A stretch of DNA of 64,000 nt, taken from a virus. A program made the position numbers and the translations under genes. A model generated the notes under the pieces. That model was given only the letters and a program-made list of their open reading frames with translations. It had not been told where the DNA came from and searched no databases. The stretch spans positions 5,087-69,086 of IMG/VR virus record IMGVR_UViG_3300010885_026736, one strand, 5' to 3'. Positions 11,795 to 48,166 of this stretch are shown here, one piece after another. Numbering within the stretch: the stretch's first letter is position 1; every line of letters begins with the position of its first letter.

Positions 11795-11870
11795 TGGTAG
11801 GCGAGGTCAGATTCGAACTGACGACCAGTCCGTTATGAGCGGACGGCTCTAACCGCTGAGCTACTCGCCT
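11795..11870 (-). tRNA. tRNA with CAU anticodon (Met or lysidine-Ile2)
   Basis: Cloverleaf AGGCGAG/CTCGCCT, GTCCG-CTCATAA-CGGAC, TTCGAAT, encoded CCA. Confidence 0.92.
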
Positions 11871-11874
11871 GTGT

Positions 11875-11967
11875 TGGTAGTCCCCGCTGGATTCGAACCA
11901 GCACTACTCGCTAATCTGGCGATGCGGCCTTATAAGGACCGTGTGCTAACCATTACACTAGAGGACT
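11875..11967 (-). tRNA. tRNA-Ile(UAU) with a long variable arm (93 nt)
   Basis: AGTCCTC/GGGGACT, CGGTC-CTTATAA-GGCCG, 22-nt variable region with TCGC/GCGA stem, CCA. Confidence 0.88.
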
Positions 11968-15152: not shown

Positions 15153-15226
15153 TGGAGCGGAATATCGGATTCGAACCGATCTCTTTAGCTTGGAAGGCTA
15201 AGGCACAACCCCTATACCAATTCCGC
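15153..15226 (-). tRNA. tRNA-Gly(UCC)
   Basis: GCGGAAT/ATTCCGC, TTAGC-CTTCCAA-GCTAA, U73, CCA. Confidence 0.92.
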
Positions 15227-15697: not shown

Positions 15698-15773
15698 TGG
15701 TGCCCACGGGAAGAATCGAACTTCCTGTCTTCGGGTTACAAATCCGCTGCATCGCCAGCAATGCTTCATGGGC
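15698..15773 (-). tRNA. tRNA-Thr(UGU)
   Basis: GCCCATG/CGTGGGC, loop TTTGTAA, TTCGATT, CCA; anticodon stem has two mismatches. Confidence 0.85.
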
Positions 15774-16456: not shown

Positions 16457-16532
16457 TGGCTGGACAAGTAGGGCTCGAACCTACGACCGCAGCATTAACA
16501 GTGCCGTGCTCTACCAACTGAGCTATTGTCCA
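16457..16532 (-). tRNA. tRNA-Asn(GUU)
   Basis: TGGACAA/TTGTCCA, CGGCA-CTGTTAA-TGCTG, G73, CCA. Confidence 0.93.
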
Positions 16533-18005: not shown

Positions 18006-18884
18006 TTAGCGGCAGCAGGTGACGCGAGCGATCTTTTCCCAACGGGAGCTGCTCATCTTACGGATGCCAGCAACCTTGAGAGCCATCCGCAGGGACAGTT
18101 CCCGCATTGAGTCTTGGTTGTCATCAATGAACCGGATCACGTCTTCTTGACCCAGCTTATCGAGACCTTCTTGAGCCAGGAGACCCTTGCTCAGGACCTG
18201 ACGGATCCGAACCAGGTAGTCACGCTTGGTCTTCATCGCCAGATCAATGTAGTGAGCACGGCTGATCATAGCGTTGAGGTGAGGAGCCAACTTGTGACCC
18301 TTGCTGATCATAGCATCAAAGTCGTAGTTGGTGATGAAGATGATGGTACCCTTGAACTCAAAGCTCTTAGGCAGCTTAGTAGCCGTATCTTCATCATAGA
18401 GCGAACCCTCAGTCATGTAAGACACCCGACGAACCTTGCTGCTGTCACAAGCAGCCTTGAGCAGGTTCAGCGAAGTGTCATCAAAGAAGATCGTGTCGGC
18501 ATCGTCAAACACCAGGACCTTACCTTCTTCAGCATGCTGGTAGAGCAGCTTGAACAGGGCAGTCGCCTTGACGTAGCCCTTCACGATAGTGTGGTTGATC
18601 TCAGAAGGATCCCACTGCCGAAGGGTTTCTTCAACGGTGAAGGACTTGCCTAGACCAGCAGGACCAGAAACGATAACCGCACGGGCATCTCCGTAGAGAG
18701 CAGCGTTGGTCATCTCCTCGAGGATCTCAAAGCGATCAGCGATACGCTCTTCGATCTCAGCGTCAGTTTCATACTTAGTTACCATAGCAGAATCAAGAAC
18801 CTCCTTGATCTTTGCCACTTTGGCGTGAGAAGCAGTCGAAGCGGAACGGTTACGAAAACCAGCAGCAGGGACTCCACGAGGCAT
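18006..18884 (-). CDS. early AAA+ ATPase
   Basis: GPAGLGKS Walker A, VLVFDDAD Walker B, IIFITN, A..SR; promoter at 18916-18949. Confidence 0.85.
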   Translation of the reverse strand: MPRGVPAAGFRNRSASTASHAKVAKIKEVLDSAMVTKYETDAEIEERIADRFEILEEMTNAALYGDARAVIVSGPAGLGKSFTVEETLRQWDPSEINHTIVKGYVKATALFKLLYQHAEEGKVLVFDDADTIFFDDTSLNLLKAACDSSKVRRVSYMTEGSLYDEDTATKLPKSFEFKGTIIFITNYDFDAMISKGHKLAPHLNAMISRAHYIDLAMKTKRDYLVRIRQVLSKGLLAQEGLDKLGQEDVIRFIDDNQDSMRELSLRMALKVAGIRKMSSSRWEKIARVTCCR

Positions 18885-31735: not shown

Positions 31736-32059
31736 TTAATTCTCCTGATCATGCACGTAGAGTTGAATAATTGCGTAGTGGATCACCTTCATCATATCGT
31801 TTCGCCAATCTTCAGGTGATCCCTTACGGCCATAACGTTGAGCATACTTTAGAATATTACCAACACAAAATCCAGTACCATGCCCACCATCAATGATGAA
31901 CTCAGTTGCTTGATACTTGTTTTGGGAGTAATGTTGCCCATATGTGTTATCAATATAGGCACGGATTTCCTCGAGGGTTTGATCCTCGTTGTATTTATAG
32001 TCGTTGTCAGAGGTGGATGATGTAATATCCAATGTAATTTTATCGCCCTTTCTAATCAA
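31736..32059 (-). CDS. DUF3310 (T7 gp1.7/SaV-like) protein
   Basis: TY.QHY, GFCVGNILKYAQRYG.KG, D..K.IHYA. Confidence 0.8.
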   Translation of the reverse strand: MIRKGDKITLDITSSTSDNDYKYNEDQTLEEIRAYIDNTYGQHYSQNKYQATEFIIDGGHGTGFCVGNILKYAQRYGRKGSPEDWRNDMMKVIHYAIIQLYVHDQEN

Positions 32060-32868
32060 GCTGCATACTCCTTAAGAACTTGTTCAACATGTGACTTGGC
32101 GGTTTCCCAAGATACGGGACCTGTTTCATCTGCATACGCTACAGGATCTGCACGACCTAGCTTGATGAATGCTTCAATACGCTCAACAGACGATGCTGAC
32201 TTATAATCTGAATACCAGATGTTATTGTGTTGCATCGGCTTGTATGAGGTATTTGTGTTAGCATACACGGTATTGAAATTAATGTCAAGCTCTTCGCAAA
32301 GATTAATTCCGTCTTGTAGGATACCAAACTTATCAATTTCTAGATAAGGTGTGTAATAACCTACACGCTCTGCTTCCCAGTTACCAATACGGAATGCAGC
32401 GTCATCTGCATCTCGGAATTCTTGACGGCAGTCAGGATAGATCGCATGATCGCCAGCATGAATGCCTAGAGCAATTGAAACATCTTCTTGCCAAGAATTA
32501 GCAACTGAAAGTGCGACTGCTTGTGTGATTGAAGCAAAGATTTTGTTACGATTAGGAACAACTGTTGCCTTCATGTTTTCATGAGCATAGTGACCCTCAG
32601 GAACATCATCTCCGCCACGAATTAAAGCAGAGTTTAGAAGTTCAGGAAGCCCTACCATCTGAATAGTTTGATGAAAGATGTTATACCCACGTGTCTTAAG
32701 GTATTCAACTAGAGCTTCTGCACGTTCTAGTTCAACACTATGCTTTTGACCATAGAAGAATGATAGAGCAGTAATAGTACCATTGTTCTTTTTTGCTTGT
32801 GCTAGACAGTTTAGAAGAAGTGTGCTACTATCCATGCCACCAGATAGTGATACGACGAAATGCTTCAT
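32056..32868 (-). CDS. queC: 7-cyano-7-deazaguanine synthase
   Basis: SLSGGMDSST, YGQKH..E, TVVPNRN, HAGDHAIYPDCR. Confidence 0.95.
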   Translation of the reverse strand: MKHFVVSLSGGMDSSTLLLNCLAQAKKNNGTITALSFFYGQKHSVELERAEALVEYLKTRGYNIFHQTIQMVGLPELLNSALIRGGDDVPEGHYAHENMKATVVPNRNKIFASITQAVALSVANSWQEDVSIALGIHAGDHAIYPDCRQEFRDADDAAFRIGNWEAERVGYYTPYLEIDKFGILQDGINLCEELDINFNTVYANTNTSYKPMQHNNIWYSDYKSASSVERIEAFIKLGRADPVAYADETGPVSWETAKSHVEQVLKEYAA

Positions 32869-32925
32869 AATAGACTCCATAATAAAGACGGTATGTTGTT
32901 TAGAGTGGTTAGTCTCTTTGAACCA

Positions 32926-33852
32926 CTATTGACGCAGAGTCTTTGCAGAAATAAGTGTTGTATTTCTCAAATCACCTGCAATGTGGAGTAGATGATTATG
33001 TGATGCACGTACAGGATTAATATCAATCCCACCTCTACGAGTATATAGACATGCCACAAATAGTTCTTGTGGTTGAACTAATGAATGTAGTCGTGTATAG
33101 ATGCACTCACAAATTTCTTCATGGAAATGATTTTCTTTACGCATAGAAACGATATACTGCAAGAGAGATTCTTTGGTTGGTAGTTCATCTGCCTTGATGT
33201 AGATGTAAACATCACCCCAATCAGGTTGATTAGTCACACGACAATTAGAACGTAGTGAAGGTGACCATACACGCAGCATTCCTTTTTCTTGTGAGAGTTT
33301 AATGATATCAGGACTTTCATTATACGCACTAAAGTCAGTATTTGCTACACGTGTATTAGAATCTAACAATTCAAAGAAATTATGGCTGGGAATAGGAAAT
33401 TTTGTATAGCTATTATAAGCATTTGCAGAGTGTAATACAATTTCAACCTCAGTATTAAGAGCTGCTGATAGATCATGCTCAATGTATTCTCTAGCAAGAT
33501 ACATTGCATCTTGAAAATCATTATCAATCTTAACCATGTTGTAAGAGTTTAGATACAACTTCAATGATTTTGATTCTACAATAAATTCACTGTCTGCAGG
33601 ATAAGTGATCTTAGCAATACAGCTTACAGGATATCCATTTGTAAGTAGAAATGATACTTCATAAGCATGCCATGTGTCAAATCCAACAAAGGGAAGATGC
33701 TCTTCTTCAATGTTGTACTGTACACGATTTAGGCTGCGTGGAATAGGAACTAGAAGTGAAGAATCAATCTTGTCAGGTGTGACATAGGGCTTTACTGCAC
33801 TACCATCACCTGCTTTACCTAAGTGCACTCCTGCGATATCTTCAATCTTCAT
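32926..33852 (-). CDS. queF: NADPH-dependent preQ0 reductase (bimodular QueF)
   Basis: D.WHAYE, IVESKSLKLYLNS, SNCRVTNQPDWG, FHEEICE, YTRRGGIDINP. Confidence 0.95.
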   Translation of the reverse strand: MKIEDIAGVHLGKAGDGSAVKPYVTPDKIDSSLLVPIPRSLNRVQYNIEEEHLPFVGFDTWHAYEVSFLLTNGYPVSCIAKITYPADSEFIVESKSLKLYLNSYNMVKIDNDFQDAMYLAREYIEHDLSAALNTEVEIVLHSANAYNSYTKFPIPSHNFFELLDSNTRVANTDFSAYNESPDIIKLSQEKGMLRVWSPSLRSNCRVTNQPDWGDVYIYIKADELPTKESLLQYIVSMRKENHFHEEICECIYTRLHSLVQPQELFVACLYTRRGGIDINPVRASHNHLLHIAGDLRNTTLISAKTLRQ

Positions 33853-35240
33853 GAAAAGAAATCCTCTAATGTTGTTAGTTCATTATTACGAATGATACGC
33901 TTAGATGCTACATGTGTCTTACGTTCACGCATCCACCTTGCCATATCGTCACTTGTTTTGACATTAAGCAAAGCATTCAAAGCGAGTTCTTTATCTTTAG
34001 GATGCTTTGAATACTTTTGATATTCATCAGTGCTAACTTTATCTAGGTTAGTAACGAAGTTGTGAATTTGAAAATACGTATGTGCTGCATTACACAATAG
34101 TGTAGAACATATTGCATCTTCATTATTTGTTTCAAGGACACGATTCTTGATAGTTGAGAACTTCCAGTCACCCATACCATCACCAAAGATATTAGTCATG
34201 AATTGTTCTTCAGTGACGTATTCTTCAAATGTATCCTTAAATGTAGTATACACGTTTCTGAAATGTTTGTCAACCGCATATGTTTTATTAGTGCCAATTG
34301 ATTTACAAGTTCCGTTTAACTTAAGTAATCCATATTGGAAAGTTGATGTATGCGAACTAGAGTCATAAGAGATACGATCAAACTCGCTAAGATAACCTGA
34401 CTTAAGAAGGTATAGAATAGGACGCATACGTGAAATAGAGCCAACACCAAGAACGTGTAGATGCTTTCTGACGTTTTCATGACAGAACTCACTGATCATC
34501 TTTGCTGCACGAAGCATCTCAATAGACTCTAGTTCACCATTGCCCATGCACGTATCAGCGATTGCCATACCACCAATGTTTTCATAGTCGGAAGGCTCTA
34601 GGCGTGACGCAATACCACGATAGTAAGCAACCATGTCTTCTGCACAATTACCTTGCACAATAATAATAACTTTTGTCTTAGCACCTGATGACCTAAAGTA
34701 AGATGCCTGAGCTTTTACATTCTCGCCTGTAGCAAAAGCAGAGTCCTCATGCTTATCTGCATGAAAGATCTTGTTACCTACGTTAGAACGTTCATTACGT
34801 GTTCTAGTTAAAGAAACAGATGATAAAGGAATAACATCAAAGCACATAGCATAATCTGAATACGCTTGTGTCTGGTATATCTGCTTCTTGATTTCTTCGG
34901 TGATTGATTTACCTGCGGTAACAATCTGTAGTCCACCAGAGTCTGCATAGACGCTATCCGATCCTAGGTTTTCTAATCTTTTAAATTCTTCAACATGATT
35001 TTTCTCAGTGTACGCATTATAAAGAGTTGAGATTAGTGGCTTAGTATTGTGGCACGTTTCGTCAATACGCTTCTTGAGTGACTTCATCAATGATAGGGTA
35101 GCTCTCTTATAAAGAGGATACCAAGGTGCTTCATGATCGGCGGTGAATACACCCATCATGCCCACAGCACTAACTACATAATCTAACTTTTTAATATTAT
35201 CGGCCACCTGTAAACTTTTCCTGTAATGCAATGTTGTCAA
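33849..35240 (-). CDS. guanine transglycosylase (TGT/DpdA-like); start may be GTG 35207
   Basis: YADSGGLQ, CFDVIP, IVQG, HLHVLGVG, SYDSSS; no CxCxxC zinc site of tRNA TGTs; embedded in the que cluster. Confidence 0.75.
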   Translation of the reverse strand: MTTLHYRKSLQVADNIKKLDYVVSAVGMMGVFTADHEAPWYPLYKRATLSLMKSLKKRIDETCHNTKPLISTLYNAYTEKNHVEEFKRLENLGSDSVYADSGGLQIVTAGKSITEEIKKQIYQTQAYSDYAMCFDVIPLSSVSLTRTRNERSNVGNKIFHADKHEDSAFATGENVKAQASYFRSSGAKTKVIIIVQGNCAEDMVAYYRGIASRLEPSDYENIGGMAIADTCMGNGELESIEMLRAAKMISEFCHENVRKHLHVLGVGSISRMRPILYLLKSGYLSEFDRISYDSSSHTSTFQYGLLKLNGTCKSIGTNKTYAVDKHFRNVYTTFKDTFEEYVTEEQFMTNIFGDGMGDWKFSTIKNRVLETNNEDAICSTLLCNAAHTYFQIHNFVTNLDKVSTDEYQKYSKHPKDKELALNALLNVKTSDDMARWMRERKTHVASKRIIRNNELTTLEDFFS

Positions 35241-35886
35241 AAAATTCTTTCTTTACATCTGCATCATGAAACTGACCATGTAGAACAGTTGTTTGTGTTA
35301 GAGAAGATCTTGCCATGATCCCACGGTTCTCACAGCATCCATGTGTTGCTGCAATATAAACACCTACATCAGATGTATTTGTTGCAGCCATGATTTCCTG
35401 TGAGATCTCATTACAAAGTTGTTCTTGTAGAGTTCCACGACGAGCACACCACTGTGCCAGACGTGTATACTTAGACAACCCAATAACTGTGTCTCCAGGA
35501 ATGACTCCAATGTAGCAAACACCCTTTACAGGTTGATGGTGATGGGAGCAGATTGAATTGATCTCTGAGCGAACAACTAACATGCCATCATATGCATCTT
35601 CACCTGTATTTGGAAAAGCTGTAATATCAGGTCTATGATCATACCTGCCAGACATAATTTCATTGACGTACATCTTAGCAAGACGCTTTGCTGTCTCTTG
35701 TGAGTTAGGGTCTTCTGTAGTGTCAATTACTAAACTACGAAGAGCTAGCTCAAACATGATAGTTGCTTCTTTGATTAACTTTTCACGTTCTTCATCAGTG
35801 ATATATTCAGAAATATTATCACAAGCCCAATAACGAATGTTTGCTTCGTTAAGTCTATTACGAATAATTTCAGAAGTCAATTGCAT
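35197..35886 (-). CDS. folE: GTP cyclohydrolase I
   Basis: SICSHHHQP, IGLSKYTR, LQE, HGCCENRG. Confidence 0.95.
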   Translation of the reverse strand: MQLTSEIIRNRLNEANIRYWACDNISEYITDEEREKLIKEATIMFELALRSLVIDTTEDPNSQETAKRLAKMYVNEIMSGRYDHRPDITAFPNTGEDAYDGMLVVRSEINSICSHHHQPVKGVCYIGVIPGDTVIGLSKYTRLAQWCARRGTLQEQLCNEISQEIMAATNTSDVGVYIAATHGCCENRGIMARSSLTQTTVLHGQFHDADVKKEFFDNIALQEKFTGGR

Positions 35887-36743
35887 TAGGTACCCCAAGC
35901 GTTTTTGTAAAGTGGAACTTGAATACGAGGACTAAATCTAAACCCGTTATCCCTGCAATAGTCAGCAACGTTACGTTCATTCTTCTCATAAGAAGATGCT
36001 GTGCCGCCAACAGGCATTAGATATACAGGAACATTTACATTAGCTGTTGAATACGCAGAAACTGCATAGTTAACATCTTTAATGTCTTCTTCAGTTGATA
36101 CAACAAACTTTAGGTAAACGTTACTATTAGGAATTTCAGTATATTGCTTAACAACATTTGGACAAATAGCCTTTACCCAATCTTCACCTGATGAAGGCAA
36201 CTTTGCTGATACTGAGAATGTAATTCTGATATCACTAGAAATGCCTGCTAAGAAATTTTGTAGATCAGAAGTTAATAGTTGTGTACCATTTGTTTCAAAT
36301 GTAATATCTGTTAGATGCATATGACGAGAAGAAATTTCTTTGATGAGAGCAGGATATGCTCTTTGCCAACCTAGTAGTGGTTCACCGCCTGTGATGATTA
36401 GATGCTTATCAGGACCAAACTTTCCATCAGGAAGCATCTCCTGCATCTTGTCAACGATTTCAGAAATTTCCATGAAGGGAGAAAGATCTTTGAACCGTGG
36501 ATCCCATGATGCATAGGAGTCACATCCTGTATGAACAAGAGGTAGTTCTTGATATGACTTGTATGGATGAAACTCATGAAGTTGTGCTACGGTATCACGT
36601 TCACCTGATGCCTGACCACGCTTCATACCAAATCCTGAGCATGTAAAATTACAGCCAAAAGTTCTTAGAAATACAGAAGGTACACCGACAAACATACCTT
36701 CACCTTGTAAGCTGTAAAACAGCTCTGATACTTTAATCTTCAC
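35886..36743 (-). CDS. queE: 7-carboxy-7-deazaguanine synthase (radical SAM)
   Basis: ELFYSLQGEG, FLRTFGCNFTC...CD, ITGGEPLL, ETNGT. Confidence 0.95.
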   Translation of the reverse strand: MKIKVSELFYSLQGEGMFVGVPSVFLRTFGCNFTCSGFGMKRGQASGERDTVAQLHEFHPYKSYQELPLVHTGCDSYASWDPRFKDLSPFMEISEIVDKMQEMLPDGKFGPDKHLIITGGEPLLGWQRAYPALIKEISSRHMHLTDITFETNGTQLLTSDLQNFLAGISSDIRITFSVSAKLPSSGEDWVKAICPNVVKQYTEIPNSNVYLKFVVSTEEDIKDVNYAVSAYSTANVNVPVYLMPVGGTASSYEKNERNVADYCRDNGFRFSPRIQVPLYKNAWGT

Positions 36744-37191
36744 GATGCCCAACCCTCATAGCCATATTGTTATCTGTTTCACGTACTTCTACTTTGCAGC
36801 ACCACACTCGGTCGGACCAGCCGTAGTCCTTAAGAAAGCAATCATTCACATAAGTATATAGAAAATCCGCTAGACCTTCACACCCTGTTTTTTCTACCAG
36901 AGTAATTTTTGCTAGACCCATGTCTCCTAATAGCAACAGGTCTTCCTTGTGCGGATCATCTTCTGCAACTAGTAGTGTATGATCAAACCATTCTTCTAGA
37001 AGGCTCTTTAGTGGCTTTAGACCACCGAAGTCAACCACCCAGTTACGAGCATCAAGTGTATCAGACTCAAACTCAAAGTGAAATGATAGAGCATACCCAT
37101 GGATTAGATTGCAGTGACTGTCTGCTCGCCATTGACGATATGCAACAGGACCAATCTGCTTATAAGTTTTAGTTGAAATATATTTTGCCAT
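36733..37191 (-). CDS. queD: 6-carboxy-5,6,7,8-tetrahydropterin synthase
   Basis: SHCNLIHGY, WVVDFG, FDHT, E.ET..N. Confidence 0.92.
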   Translation of the reverse strand: MAKYISTKTYKQIGPVAYRQWRADSHCNLIHGYALSFHFEFESDTLDARNWVVDFGGLKPLKSLLEEWFDHTLLVAEDDPHKEDLLLLGDMGLAKITLVEKTGCEGLADFLYTYVNDCFLKDYGWSDRVWCCKVEVRETDNNMAMRVGHRED

Positions 37192-37193
37192 AA

Positions 37194-37652
37194 CTACTCC
37201 CAAGGAAATTGTACCCAACGCTTATCTTCATTACGATCAATAGTAACGCCGAAGTAATTAGCTTTTACAGGTTGAGATACATTATAAATTAAACATGCAG
37301 TCCTAATGTTGTCAGTATAAGGTAAAAAAGATAATTTGTCAAGTAGAATCTGCATAGTTTTACCAGAGTCTATAATATCATCTACGATAAGAACATTGCA
37401 ACCTGCTTTTACAATAGTTTCAAGCTTTGCAAAATTATTATCAATATCAACTATATTACCATCTCGAGTAGAGATATGAAGCATCAATGTAGGAACTTTC
37501 AATGCATGTGATAGGTATACTGCAGGAACACATCCACCTCTAACAAGTCCTACAATAATATCAGGAATCCATGTGTCTTCTTTCAGATCAATAGCAATCC
37601 TAAGAATGTCTGCTAAAAATTCTGAATGTTCATAATGTCTTAATTCACTCAT
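37194..37652 (-). CDS. purine phosphoribosyltransferase (Gpt-like)
   Basis: GLVRGG.VPA, VLIVDDIIDSGKT PRPP loop, WVQFPWE. Confidence 0.88.
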   Translation of the reverse strand: MSELRHYEHSEFLADILRIAIDLKEDTWIPDIIVGLVRGGCVPAVYLSHALKVPTLMLHISTRDGNIVDIDNNFAKLETIVKAGCNVLIVDDIIDSGKTMQILLDKLSFLPYTDNIRTACLIYNVSQPVKANYFGVTIDRNEDKRWVQFPWE

Positions 37653-47496: not shown

Positions 47497-48024
47497 ATGG
47501 CTTGGACAAAAGAATCAAGAGAAAAGGCTTTAGAAGCCAAAAGAAAAACTGGTATAAAGAATCAGTATTCTAAGGGCGCTGTAATATCTGATGATACTAA
47601 AAATAAACTTAGAGTTTCAGGCTTAGGAAGAAAGCATACACAAGAAACAAAAGACAAATTGAGTGAAAAGGGATTAGCATCCGATCATAGACGCCTATGC
47701 AGATCTATTCGACCATACACAAAAAAAGATGGTAGTATAGTTAATCTAGATTCTTCTTGGGAAGAAGCCTTAGCTATAAGATTGGATATGTTAAACATTG
47801 AATGGATTAGACCTACTCCTATTAAATGGATAGATAGTAAAGGTAAATCAAGAAATTATTTTCCTGATTTCTATCTACCTAAATTTGAATTATTCTTAGA
47901 TCCTAAAAATCCAATAGCAATGAAACAACAACATGAAAAAGTATCTTGGCTAAAATCTAATGTAAAAAATCTTATTTTTTTAGAATCTTTGGAAGAAATA
48001 GAACAATATATCCCGATAGTTTAA
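47497..48024 (+). CDS. putative homing endonuclease (NUMOD3 + PD-(D/E)XK/TnsA-N-like)
   Basis: GRKHTQETKDKLS; DSSWE; YFPDFYL....FLDPK; AT-rich. Confidence 0.75.
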   Translation: MAWTKESREKALEAKRKTGIKNQYSKGAVISDDTKNKLRVSGLGRKHTQETKDKLSEKGLASDHRRLCRSIRPYTKKDGSIVNLDSSWEEALAIRLDMLNIEWIRPTPIKWIDSKGKSRNYFPDFYLPKFELFLDPKNPIAMKQQHEKVSWLKSNVKNLIFLESLEEIEQYIPIV

Positions 48025-48084
48025 TGGATAAAACCGAAGTTTTCTAAACTTCTAATGAAAGTTCGATTCTTTCTCGGGATGCCA
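48010..48084 (+). tRNA. tRNA-Arg(UCU)
   Basis: ATCCCGA/TCGGGAT, GAAGT-TTTCTAA-ACTTC, GAAAG-TTCGATT-CTTTC, G73, CCA. Confidence 0.88.
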
Positions 48085-48090
48085 AAATAT

Positions 48091-48166
48091 GGCCACTTAG
48101 CCCAGCGGCAGAGGCAAAGGTCTTAAAAACCTTCAAGGGTGAGTTCGAATCTCACAGTGGCTACCA
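48091..48166 (+). tRNA. tRNA-Leu(UAA) with a short variable loop
   Basis: GGCCACT/AGTGGCT, AAGGT-CTTAAAA-ACCTT, 5-nt variable loop, A73, CCA. Confidence 0.85.

Follow-up and report, generated by a model that had tools for sequence, protein, structure and literature searches.

A conserved pseudoknot of the preQ1-I kind lies directly upstream of phage queC genes

What occupies the only gap in a tightly packed cluster of phage 7-deazaguanine genes? The window analysed here is a stretch of 64,000 nucleotides (nt) from the viral record IMGVR_UViG_3300010885_026736. On its minus strand, the 7-deazaguanine genes run in the order queD-queE-folE-(463-aa ORF)-queF-queC (aa, amino acids; ORF, open reading frame), adjoining or overlapping one another at every boundary but one, where a spacer of 57 nt separates the queF stop codon (32928-32926) from the queC AUG (32868). 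A reading made from the letters of the window alone (the sequence-only reading) had proposed that this spacer holds a switchable H-type pseudoknot resembling a variant preQ1-I riboswitch; all letters of the transcript on which it was built are present on the minus strand at 32928-32866. The H-type pseudoknot directly upstream of queC is confirmed here: both of its helices, P1 and P2, covary in homologous leaders, and the fold is conserved, is linked to queC and keeps its position ahead of the queC start. Its layout in the window, with loops L1 to L3, is as follows.

32921-32927, minus strand: 5' strand of P1, 7 nt; it shares its first two bases with the end of the queF stop codon
32918-32920, minus strand: L1, 3 nt; begins with a pyrimidine in 25 of 25 relatives
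32912-32917, minus strand: 5' strand of P2, 6 nt, within the P1 loop; the last base is an invariant C
32911, minus strand: L2, a single U between the P2 5' strand and the P1 3' strand; U in 25 of 25
32904-32910, minus strand: 3' strand of P1, 7 nt; the second base is an A at the position of the preQ1-I specificity C and is paired here
32890-32903, minus strand: L3, 14 nt, A-rich; an invariant run of A's and an invariant C-A-Y-A-C end, followed by a linker of 1-2 nt
32884-32889, minus strand: 3' strand of P2, 6 nt; the first base is an invariant G
32875-32878, minus strand: Shine-Dalgarno (SD) sequence GGAG, 5 nt past P2 and 6 nt ahead of the AUG, outside the pseudoknot
32866-32868, minus strand: queC AUG

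The form seen in the window, termed type A, measures about 44 nt (P1 of 7 bp, P2 of 6 bp). Its P1 loop as a whole spans 32911-32920 (minus strand), and the pseudoknot ends 5 nt 5' of the SD and 15 nt 5' of the AUG. The P1 hairpin has a predicted energy of −5.9 kcal/mol, and P2 alone contributes −2.5 to −4.5 kcal/mol in type A. The nested minimum-free-energy fold of this stretch of the window gives no signal (z = −0.82), a value that is uninformative because a pseudoknot cannot be represented in such a fold. The window by itself cannot show that the fold exceeds chance, and the evidence comes from its relatives. The ORF listing begins queC at 32880, at an in-frame ATG that overlaps the GGAG; this codon is unlikely to be the start, and 32868 is favoured because the N-termini of homologues align with it. 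A comparable in-frame ATG lies within the SD-like stretch of two other type-A leaders (L020 and L026).

Retrieval from IMG/VR on the basis of QueC gave a first set of 80 loci, among them leaders with the same architecture and clear compensatory changes. In 25 distinct type-A leaders, 95.4% of the cells in the paired columns are standard pairs, a level reached by none of 500 shuffles; 28-55% were paired in a control in which the partners were slid. Changes on both sides of a pair occur in 6 of the 13 pairs (20 cells). P1 is 99.4% paired in the 25 sequences, with both-sided change in two of its seven pairs. For P2 the overall count is an underestimate, because the alignments made with MAFFT and with a covariance model shift its 3' strand by one base in 4 of 25 rows, in which the linker between L3 and P2 is 2 nt. 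When the leaders are parsed with the structure in mind, all six P2 pairs form in 25 of 25 and all seven P1 pairs in 24 of 25. Ten distinct P2 helices are found, each fully complementary, with covariation at five of the six positions. The occurrence of G-U pairs assigns the fold to the RNA strand in queC sense. Covariation across phage queC leaders, which the sequence-only reading had named as a check, is thus found, and it indicates that the pseudoknot, formed by P1 and by pairing of its loop with the 3' tail, is real and far beyond chance. One further association links the first base of L1 and the Y of AYAC (columns 8 and 35 of alignment A3; 32920 and 32893 in the window), which are C/U in 10 leaders, U/C in 11 and other combinations in 4 of the 25. 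The 21 leaders that follow it could reflect a tertiary contact or shared ancestry, which these sequences do not distinguish, and phylogeny seems to account for other column pairs whose mutual information is higher.

The element also exists in sister forms, with P1 ranging from 5 to 7 bp and P2 from 3 to 6 bp. The commonest, type B (at least 120 stretches), has a P1 of 5 bp, a P2 of 3-4 bp and an L2 of 3 nt with an open junction. In 64 distinct type-B sequences P1 is 99.7% paired, and three pairs show both-sided change; the search pattern itself restricts variation in type-B P2, and hence only one both-sided P2 change was seen. Type C has stems of 5 bp and gave 21 pattern matches, of which 17 precede queC (on 17 contigs) and 4 are apparent chance matches without P2; pairing reaches 98.8% of cells in its 8 distinct sequences, with both-sided change in four pairs. 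In all forms the P1 3' strand begins with A and has a U just 5' of it, the top pair of P1 is U-A, and L3 has AYAC or AAUAC at its 3' end, 1-3 bases ahead of P2. This retention of unpaired junction bases across forms that differ in stem length suggests conservation of the aptamer kind. With the motif model R1, a single copy was detected in the window, and none of the other forms was matched convincingly. Two near-identical leaders, L316 and L317 (before position 401), differ where the P2 3' strand begins: L317 has G, whereas L316 has A, which turns the otherwise invariant closing pair into a C-A mismatch.

The linkage to queC is strict. The pattern used to scan for type A comprised P1, the start of L1, the last base of the P2 5' strand, L2 and L3 and left out the P2 3' strand. 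Matches were obtained on 47 viral contigs, in 47 of 47 cases directly upstream of a QueC N-terminus. The pseudoknot architecture was detected in 53 of the 80 QueC loci of the first set, one of which had 1 nt of upstream sequence, and in 7 of 719 control windows; the finder missed one type-C variant. A second QueC query gave 41 of 65 distinct leaders (counted as per-leader rows) and 4 of 1256 control windows, windows containing the core strings of the motif itself having been skipped before counting. Eighty type-B matches in the loci read were followed by a QueC signature in 75 cases, by too little downstream sequence in 2 and by variant or decayed ORFs in 3. The last are a motif at 8008-8042 of L137, where the next ORF has no PP-loop SGGMDS stretch, one at 10605-10638 of L176, followed only by a short ORF, and one at 140-173 of L136, ahead of an ORF with a variant PP-loop; these may be decaying or diverged queC genes that retain their leader. 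A role in cis in the control of QueC, as first proposed, is consistent with this linkage.

The upstream gene, in turn, varies. It is QueF in 51 of the 59 type-A loci with enough upstream sequence, and none of the genes of the cluster stands upstream of the type-B element in 144 of 144 loci; both counts include some contigs twice. The comparison indicates that queC is the constant partner of the element. The same observations bear on a recoding or termination signal, in which a pseudoknot downstream of the queF stop would stimulate readthrough or frameshifting. Such a signal would suit the position of the queF stop, which abuts or overlaps P1 in most type-A leaders. However, the stop sits inside P1 rather than several nucleotides upstream of it, genes unrelated to queF precede the sister forms, type-A leaders L003, L005 and L006 lie in other upstream contexts, and it is the distance to the queC start that stays constant; we consider recoding extremely improbable. 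That distance, from the end of P2 to the AUG, is 13-23 nt in 25 of 25 type-A leaders, and an SD-like stretch, read by eye, starts 3-13 nt after P2. Position relative to the queC start is, on these alignments, the constrained feature.

The element belongs predominantly to viruses. Its fold, with compensatory mutations, recurs in well over a hundred marine phage sequences, in phage backgrounds that differ as widely as SD-using T4-like phages and SD-less contigs with A/T-rich leaders that resemble Flavobacterium phages. By comparison, the type-A pattern gave one match in 32.2 million contigs of species-representative prokaryote genomes. This lone match (L130, 1-1886), from a Melainabacteria metagenome-assembled genome bin, carries the end of queF, the motif, queC and a further ORF of 165 aa, and seems to be a piece of phage genome rather than of the host's. 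A blastn search of named phages with the short type-A motif returned no match, and one with the short type-B motif returned only four records of the cultured Flavobacterium phage immuto (three isolates). In immuto the motif stands, unannotated, ahead of queC (NC_055915.1, at about 18554-18587; L001, 5939-5972).

Is the element a preQ1-I riboswitch? The Rfam search that the sequence-only reading had suggested bears out the likeness: RF00522 (preQ1-I) is the sole Rfam match around the site. A permissive scan of 401 bases around the site with all 4227 families returned only this family, at 13.1 bits against a gathering score of 39 (E = 5.4). When RF00522 was searched alone over the 69-kb record, the motif was the only match (E = 0.22), and two type-A relatives scored 21.7 and 20.3 bits (E of about 1e-4 to 6e-4 per record). 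The phage element shares with preQ1-I its small size, its H-type fold, in which the P1 loop pairs with the 3' tail to give P2, and its place in the leader of a gene for 7-deazaguanine biosynthesis, and it retains a G-G-U-U-C at the 5' end of P1 and an A-rich L3 that ends in A-x-A-C. In preQ1-I, an A-rich L3 lines the minor groove of P1 and supplies pocket bases; the phage L3 is A-rich and 14 nt long, with invariant A's and an A-Y-A-C end, and its contacts may or may not be of that sort. The canonical preQ1-I aptamer is about 34 nt long and its expression platform is integrated in P2; the phage element, by contrast, has a P1 of 7 bp, a P2 of 6 bp, an L3 of 14 nt and a length of about 44 nt, its SD lies outside P2, starting 5 nt after it, and it has no terminator. 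It also differs in being almost confined to viral contigs.

The main difference lies in the pocket. According to the accessible text of a 2024 review, from which the type definitions used here are taken, all types of preQ1-I have a strictly conserved cytosine just 5' of the P1 3' strand that pairs with the ligand, preceded so as to give UC in type I and AC in types II and III (PMC11625349). The spacing of A-x-A-C in the phage L3 equals that of A28, A30 and C31, described in the accessible parts of two sources as lining the type I pocket (PMC11625349, PMC8752633). In the window the bases ahead of the 5-bp core of the P1 3' strand are U-A-A, both A's pairing with the two opposite U's, and type B has a U at the position of the C. 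The sequence-only reading had noted that the ligand-pairing C is an A here and that the element is not canonical. This is correct, and moreover the A pairs with the opposing U by covariation, an exchange of U-A for A-U being seen in L006 and in type C. Because this A is base-paired, the canonical pocket would be closed, with P1 running through it. The comparison thus indicates that the element is not a member of RF00522 as defined and is either related to it or similar in appearance, its junction having been rebuilt.

Other preQ1 riboswitches are more distant. Neither RF01054 (preQ1-II) nor RF02680 (preQ1-III) matched at E values up to 10, whether in the 401 bases surrounding the site or in 20 related loci. 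Both classes likewise control queuosine-related genes, and their pockets, as set out in the accessible review text, contain a conserved C, a conserved U, inclined adenines and U-A-U layers, the same kinds of bases as are invariant at the phage junction (PMC11625349). They differ in being HLout pseudoknots of another and larger architecture.

How the element might act on queC is constrained by what surrounds the SD. The sequence-only reading had supposed a switch in which the loop alternatively pairs with the SD region. Such a pairing does exist in the window (−5.2 kcal/mol, z = −2.0), but in relatives it is at the level of chance (z below −2 in 1 of 25, mean z of +0.58); it is peculiar to this window, and SD occlusion by alternative loop pairing is unsupported as the switch. 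The spacer has no promoter or terminator, and no terminator-like site was found in 32000-34000. Regulation without burial of the SD has an experimental parallel: in the available portion of one report, a preQ1-I type I aptamer of Carnobacterium antarcticum that had been moved up to 10 nt from the SD still regulated translation, with steric block given as the mode and natural cases predicted (PMC10018353). In that construct, as in the phage element, a compact pseudoknot stands shortly upstream of an SD that is free, but the construct is engineered and has the canonical pocket, whereas the phage case is natural and has another pocket.

We propose that the element is a variant preQ1-I-like riboswitch that represses QueC translation by steric block, an interpretation whose chances we judge to be evenly poised; that a ligand is bound, which one it is and in which direction it regulates are what we infer. 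The pseudoknot would act in cis on the polycistronic queD-queE-folE-(463-aa ORF)-queF-queC message and control initiation of queC translation. P1 would form unaided, docking of the 3' tail (P2, with L3 along P1) would be marginal, and a metabolite of the 7-deazaguanine pathway, most likely preQ1 or preQ0, would stabilise the docked state at the P1/P2 junction. Three invariant features would line this junction: the U of L2, the C-G closing pair and the AYAC at the end of L3. The folded knot, being compact, would then hinder 30S loading sterically, without pairing to the SD, and the outcome would be product feedback on QueC. Four points suggest that folding depends on a ligand: P2 is weak (3-4 bp in type B), the junction bases are invariant across forms, the sequence resembles a preQ1 aptamer and the link to queC is exclusive; by analogy with preQ1-I, the type-B P2 would be hard to hold without extra stabilisation. 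Feedback on an ATP-consuming step such as that of QueC is plausible, since phages with QueF replace guanine with preQ1 derivatives, in immuto fully, as stated in the accessible part of a preprint (bioRxiv 10.1101/2023.04.13.536721).

A more specific proposal is possible and is made tentatively, its chances falling a little short of even: the forms would together constitute a phage-specific riboswitch class, of which the element in the window would be the first example to be noticed, derived from or converging on preQ1-I, with a pocket that does without the Watson-Crick C in L2. This class would sense a 7-deazaguanine intermediate (preQ1, preQ0 or methyl- or formyl-preQ1) and throttle QueC and, with it, the flux into guanine replacement, and its forms would act both on SD-led messages and on the SD-less, A/U-rich leaders of the Flavobacterium type.

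Several observations weigh against a riboswitch. The specificity C of preQ1-I is absent, the aligned position being a paired A. No RF00522 score comes near the gathering score, and this model gave no match at the motif in L006, type B, type C or 20 loci of the second set. Among the 25 type-A leaders, no conserved alternative helix was found between any other segment and the SD region. The element is absent from 26 of the 80 related queC leaders in the first set (the locus with 1 nt upstream being uncounted) and from 24 of 65 in the second, and all sequences except that of immuto come from contigs of uncultured viruses. A type-A P1 of 7 bp and P2 of 6 bp may fold without a ligand, and ligand-free pseudoknots with tertiary triples typically have conserved loop bases too.

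The last points lead to a pseudoknot that works without any ligand. It would have descended from preQ1-I or resemble it by chance, its P1 being lengthened by two U-A pairs across the site of the pocket, and, folding constitutively, it would serve as a fixed attenuator of queC or insulate it from ribosomes arriving from the upstream gene. Pairing of the A at the specificity-C position with its opposing U, the stems of type A, which may be stable by themselves, and the lack of a conserved alternative structure would all fit; so would the queF stop codon inside P1, because of which ribosomes terminating on queF must melt that helix. In the ligand-free crystal structure of the Tte preQ1-I riboswitch, an adenine reportedly occupies the pocket. 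The commonest form, however, with its P2 of 3-4 bp, L2 of 3 nt and open junction, is unlikely to be stable unaided, the junction stays invariant whatever the length and sequence of the stems, suggesting that more than bulk structure is maintained, and a weak SD would be a cheaper fixed attenuator. We regard a ligand-independent role as unlikely, though it is the strongest of the rival readings.

A knot bound by protein has also to be weighed. QueC or another protein common to these phages might bind the pseudoknot as a translational operator and repress queC, in the manner of T4, in which genes 32 and 43 are under autogenous control and RegA controls translation as well. The operator of T4 gene 32 is a pseudoknot just 5' of the initiation region, and it resembles the element in the window in being of H type, upstream of the initiation region and in a T4-like phage. 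The window itself comes from a T4-like phage with homologues of gp44 and gp45, queC is the sole constant neighbour, and the conserved unpaired bases could serve as protein contacts. Yet the gene 32 operator lies on the mRNA of the DNA-binding protein itself and is limited to T4-like phages, whereas the phage family described here tracks queC across unrelated phages and very different backgrounds, both SD-using T4-like and SD-less; in addition, no RNA-binding domain was detected in QueC, and the likeness in sequence points to a metabolite aptamer. A protein operator is accordingly quite improbable in our estimation.

The genes around the element, whose message the proposed riboswitch would control, are listed below. 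The source record is a 69-kb viral contig with a CheckV completeness of 39%.

32056-32868, minus strand: queC (7-cyano-7-deazaguanine synthase, 270 aa; Pfam QueC, E = 5.8e-35), the regulated gene
32926-33852, minus strand: queF-type preQ0 reductase of two domains (QueF_N and QueF), 308 aa, the gene upstream of queC
33849-35240, minus strand: 463-aa ORF between folE and queF, with no Pfam family and a sole match to phrog_10773 (function unknown)
35197-35898, minus strand: FolE
35886-36752, minus strand: radical-SAM QueE-like gene
36733-37218, minus strand: QueD-like gene

By its position, the 463-aa ORF is a candidate for the DpdA-type DNA transglycosylase of the cluster. T4-type clamp and clamp-loader genes (the gp44 and gp45 homologues) come after the que cluster, and the source phage is T4-like. 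Seven tRNA genes above the Rfam threshold (11798-11967, 15156-15226, 15701-15773 and 16460-16532, minus strand; 48010-48163, plus strand) are as expected for a large T4-like phage.

The comparative evidence indicates that phages carry a genuine RNA element, a variant of the preQ1-I kind that is both conserved and abundant. The other forms (type B, type C and the 20 loci of the second set) are covered by no family in Rfam 15, and the literature searched gave no paper recognisable as describing a riboswitch or pseudoknot upstream of phage queC, though an earlier mention may exist; one paper from these searches names a preQ1 riboswitch review solely among its references. To our knowledge, phage-borne riboswitches that serve the phage's own metabolism are rare, and we know of none tied to DNA hypermodification. 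The word "riboswitch" occurs nowhere in the accessible part of the preprint on phage 7-deazaguanines (bioRxiv 10.1101/2023.04.13.536721), and "phage" occurs nowhere in that of the 2024 review of preQ1 riboswitches (PMC11625349). The element is directly testable, because its covariation is clean and one cultured host-phage system, that of Flavobacterium phage immuto, is available. If nothing is bound, the element would be a natural "locked" derivative of a riboswitch fold, which would still be of interest. If a ligand is bound, it would show a minimal aptamer that has lost its specificity base and yet works, or that has changed its ligand. The accessible text of the 2024 review counts riboswitches on SD-less mRNAs, and regulation without burial of the SD, among the open cases (PMC11625349); if the proposed mechanism is true, these phages would provide a natural example of a riboswitch on an SD-less mRNA and of steric block without sequestration of the SD.

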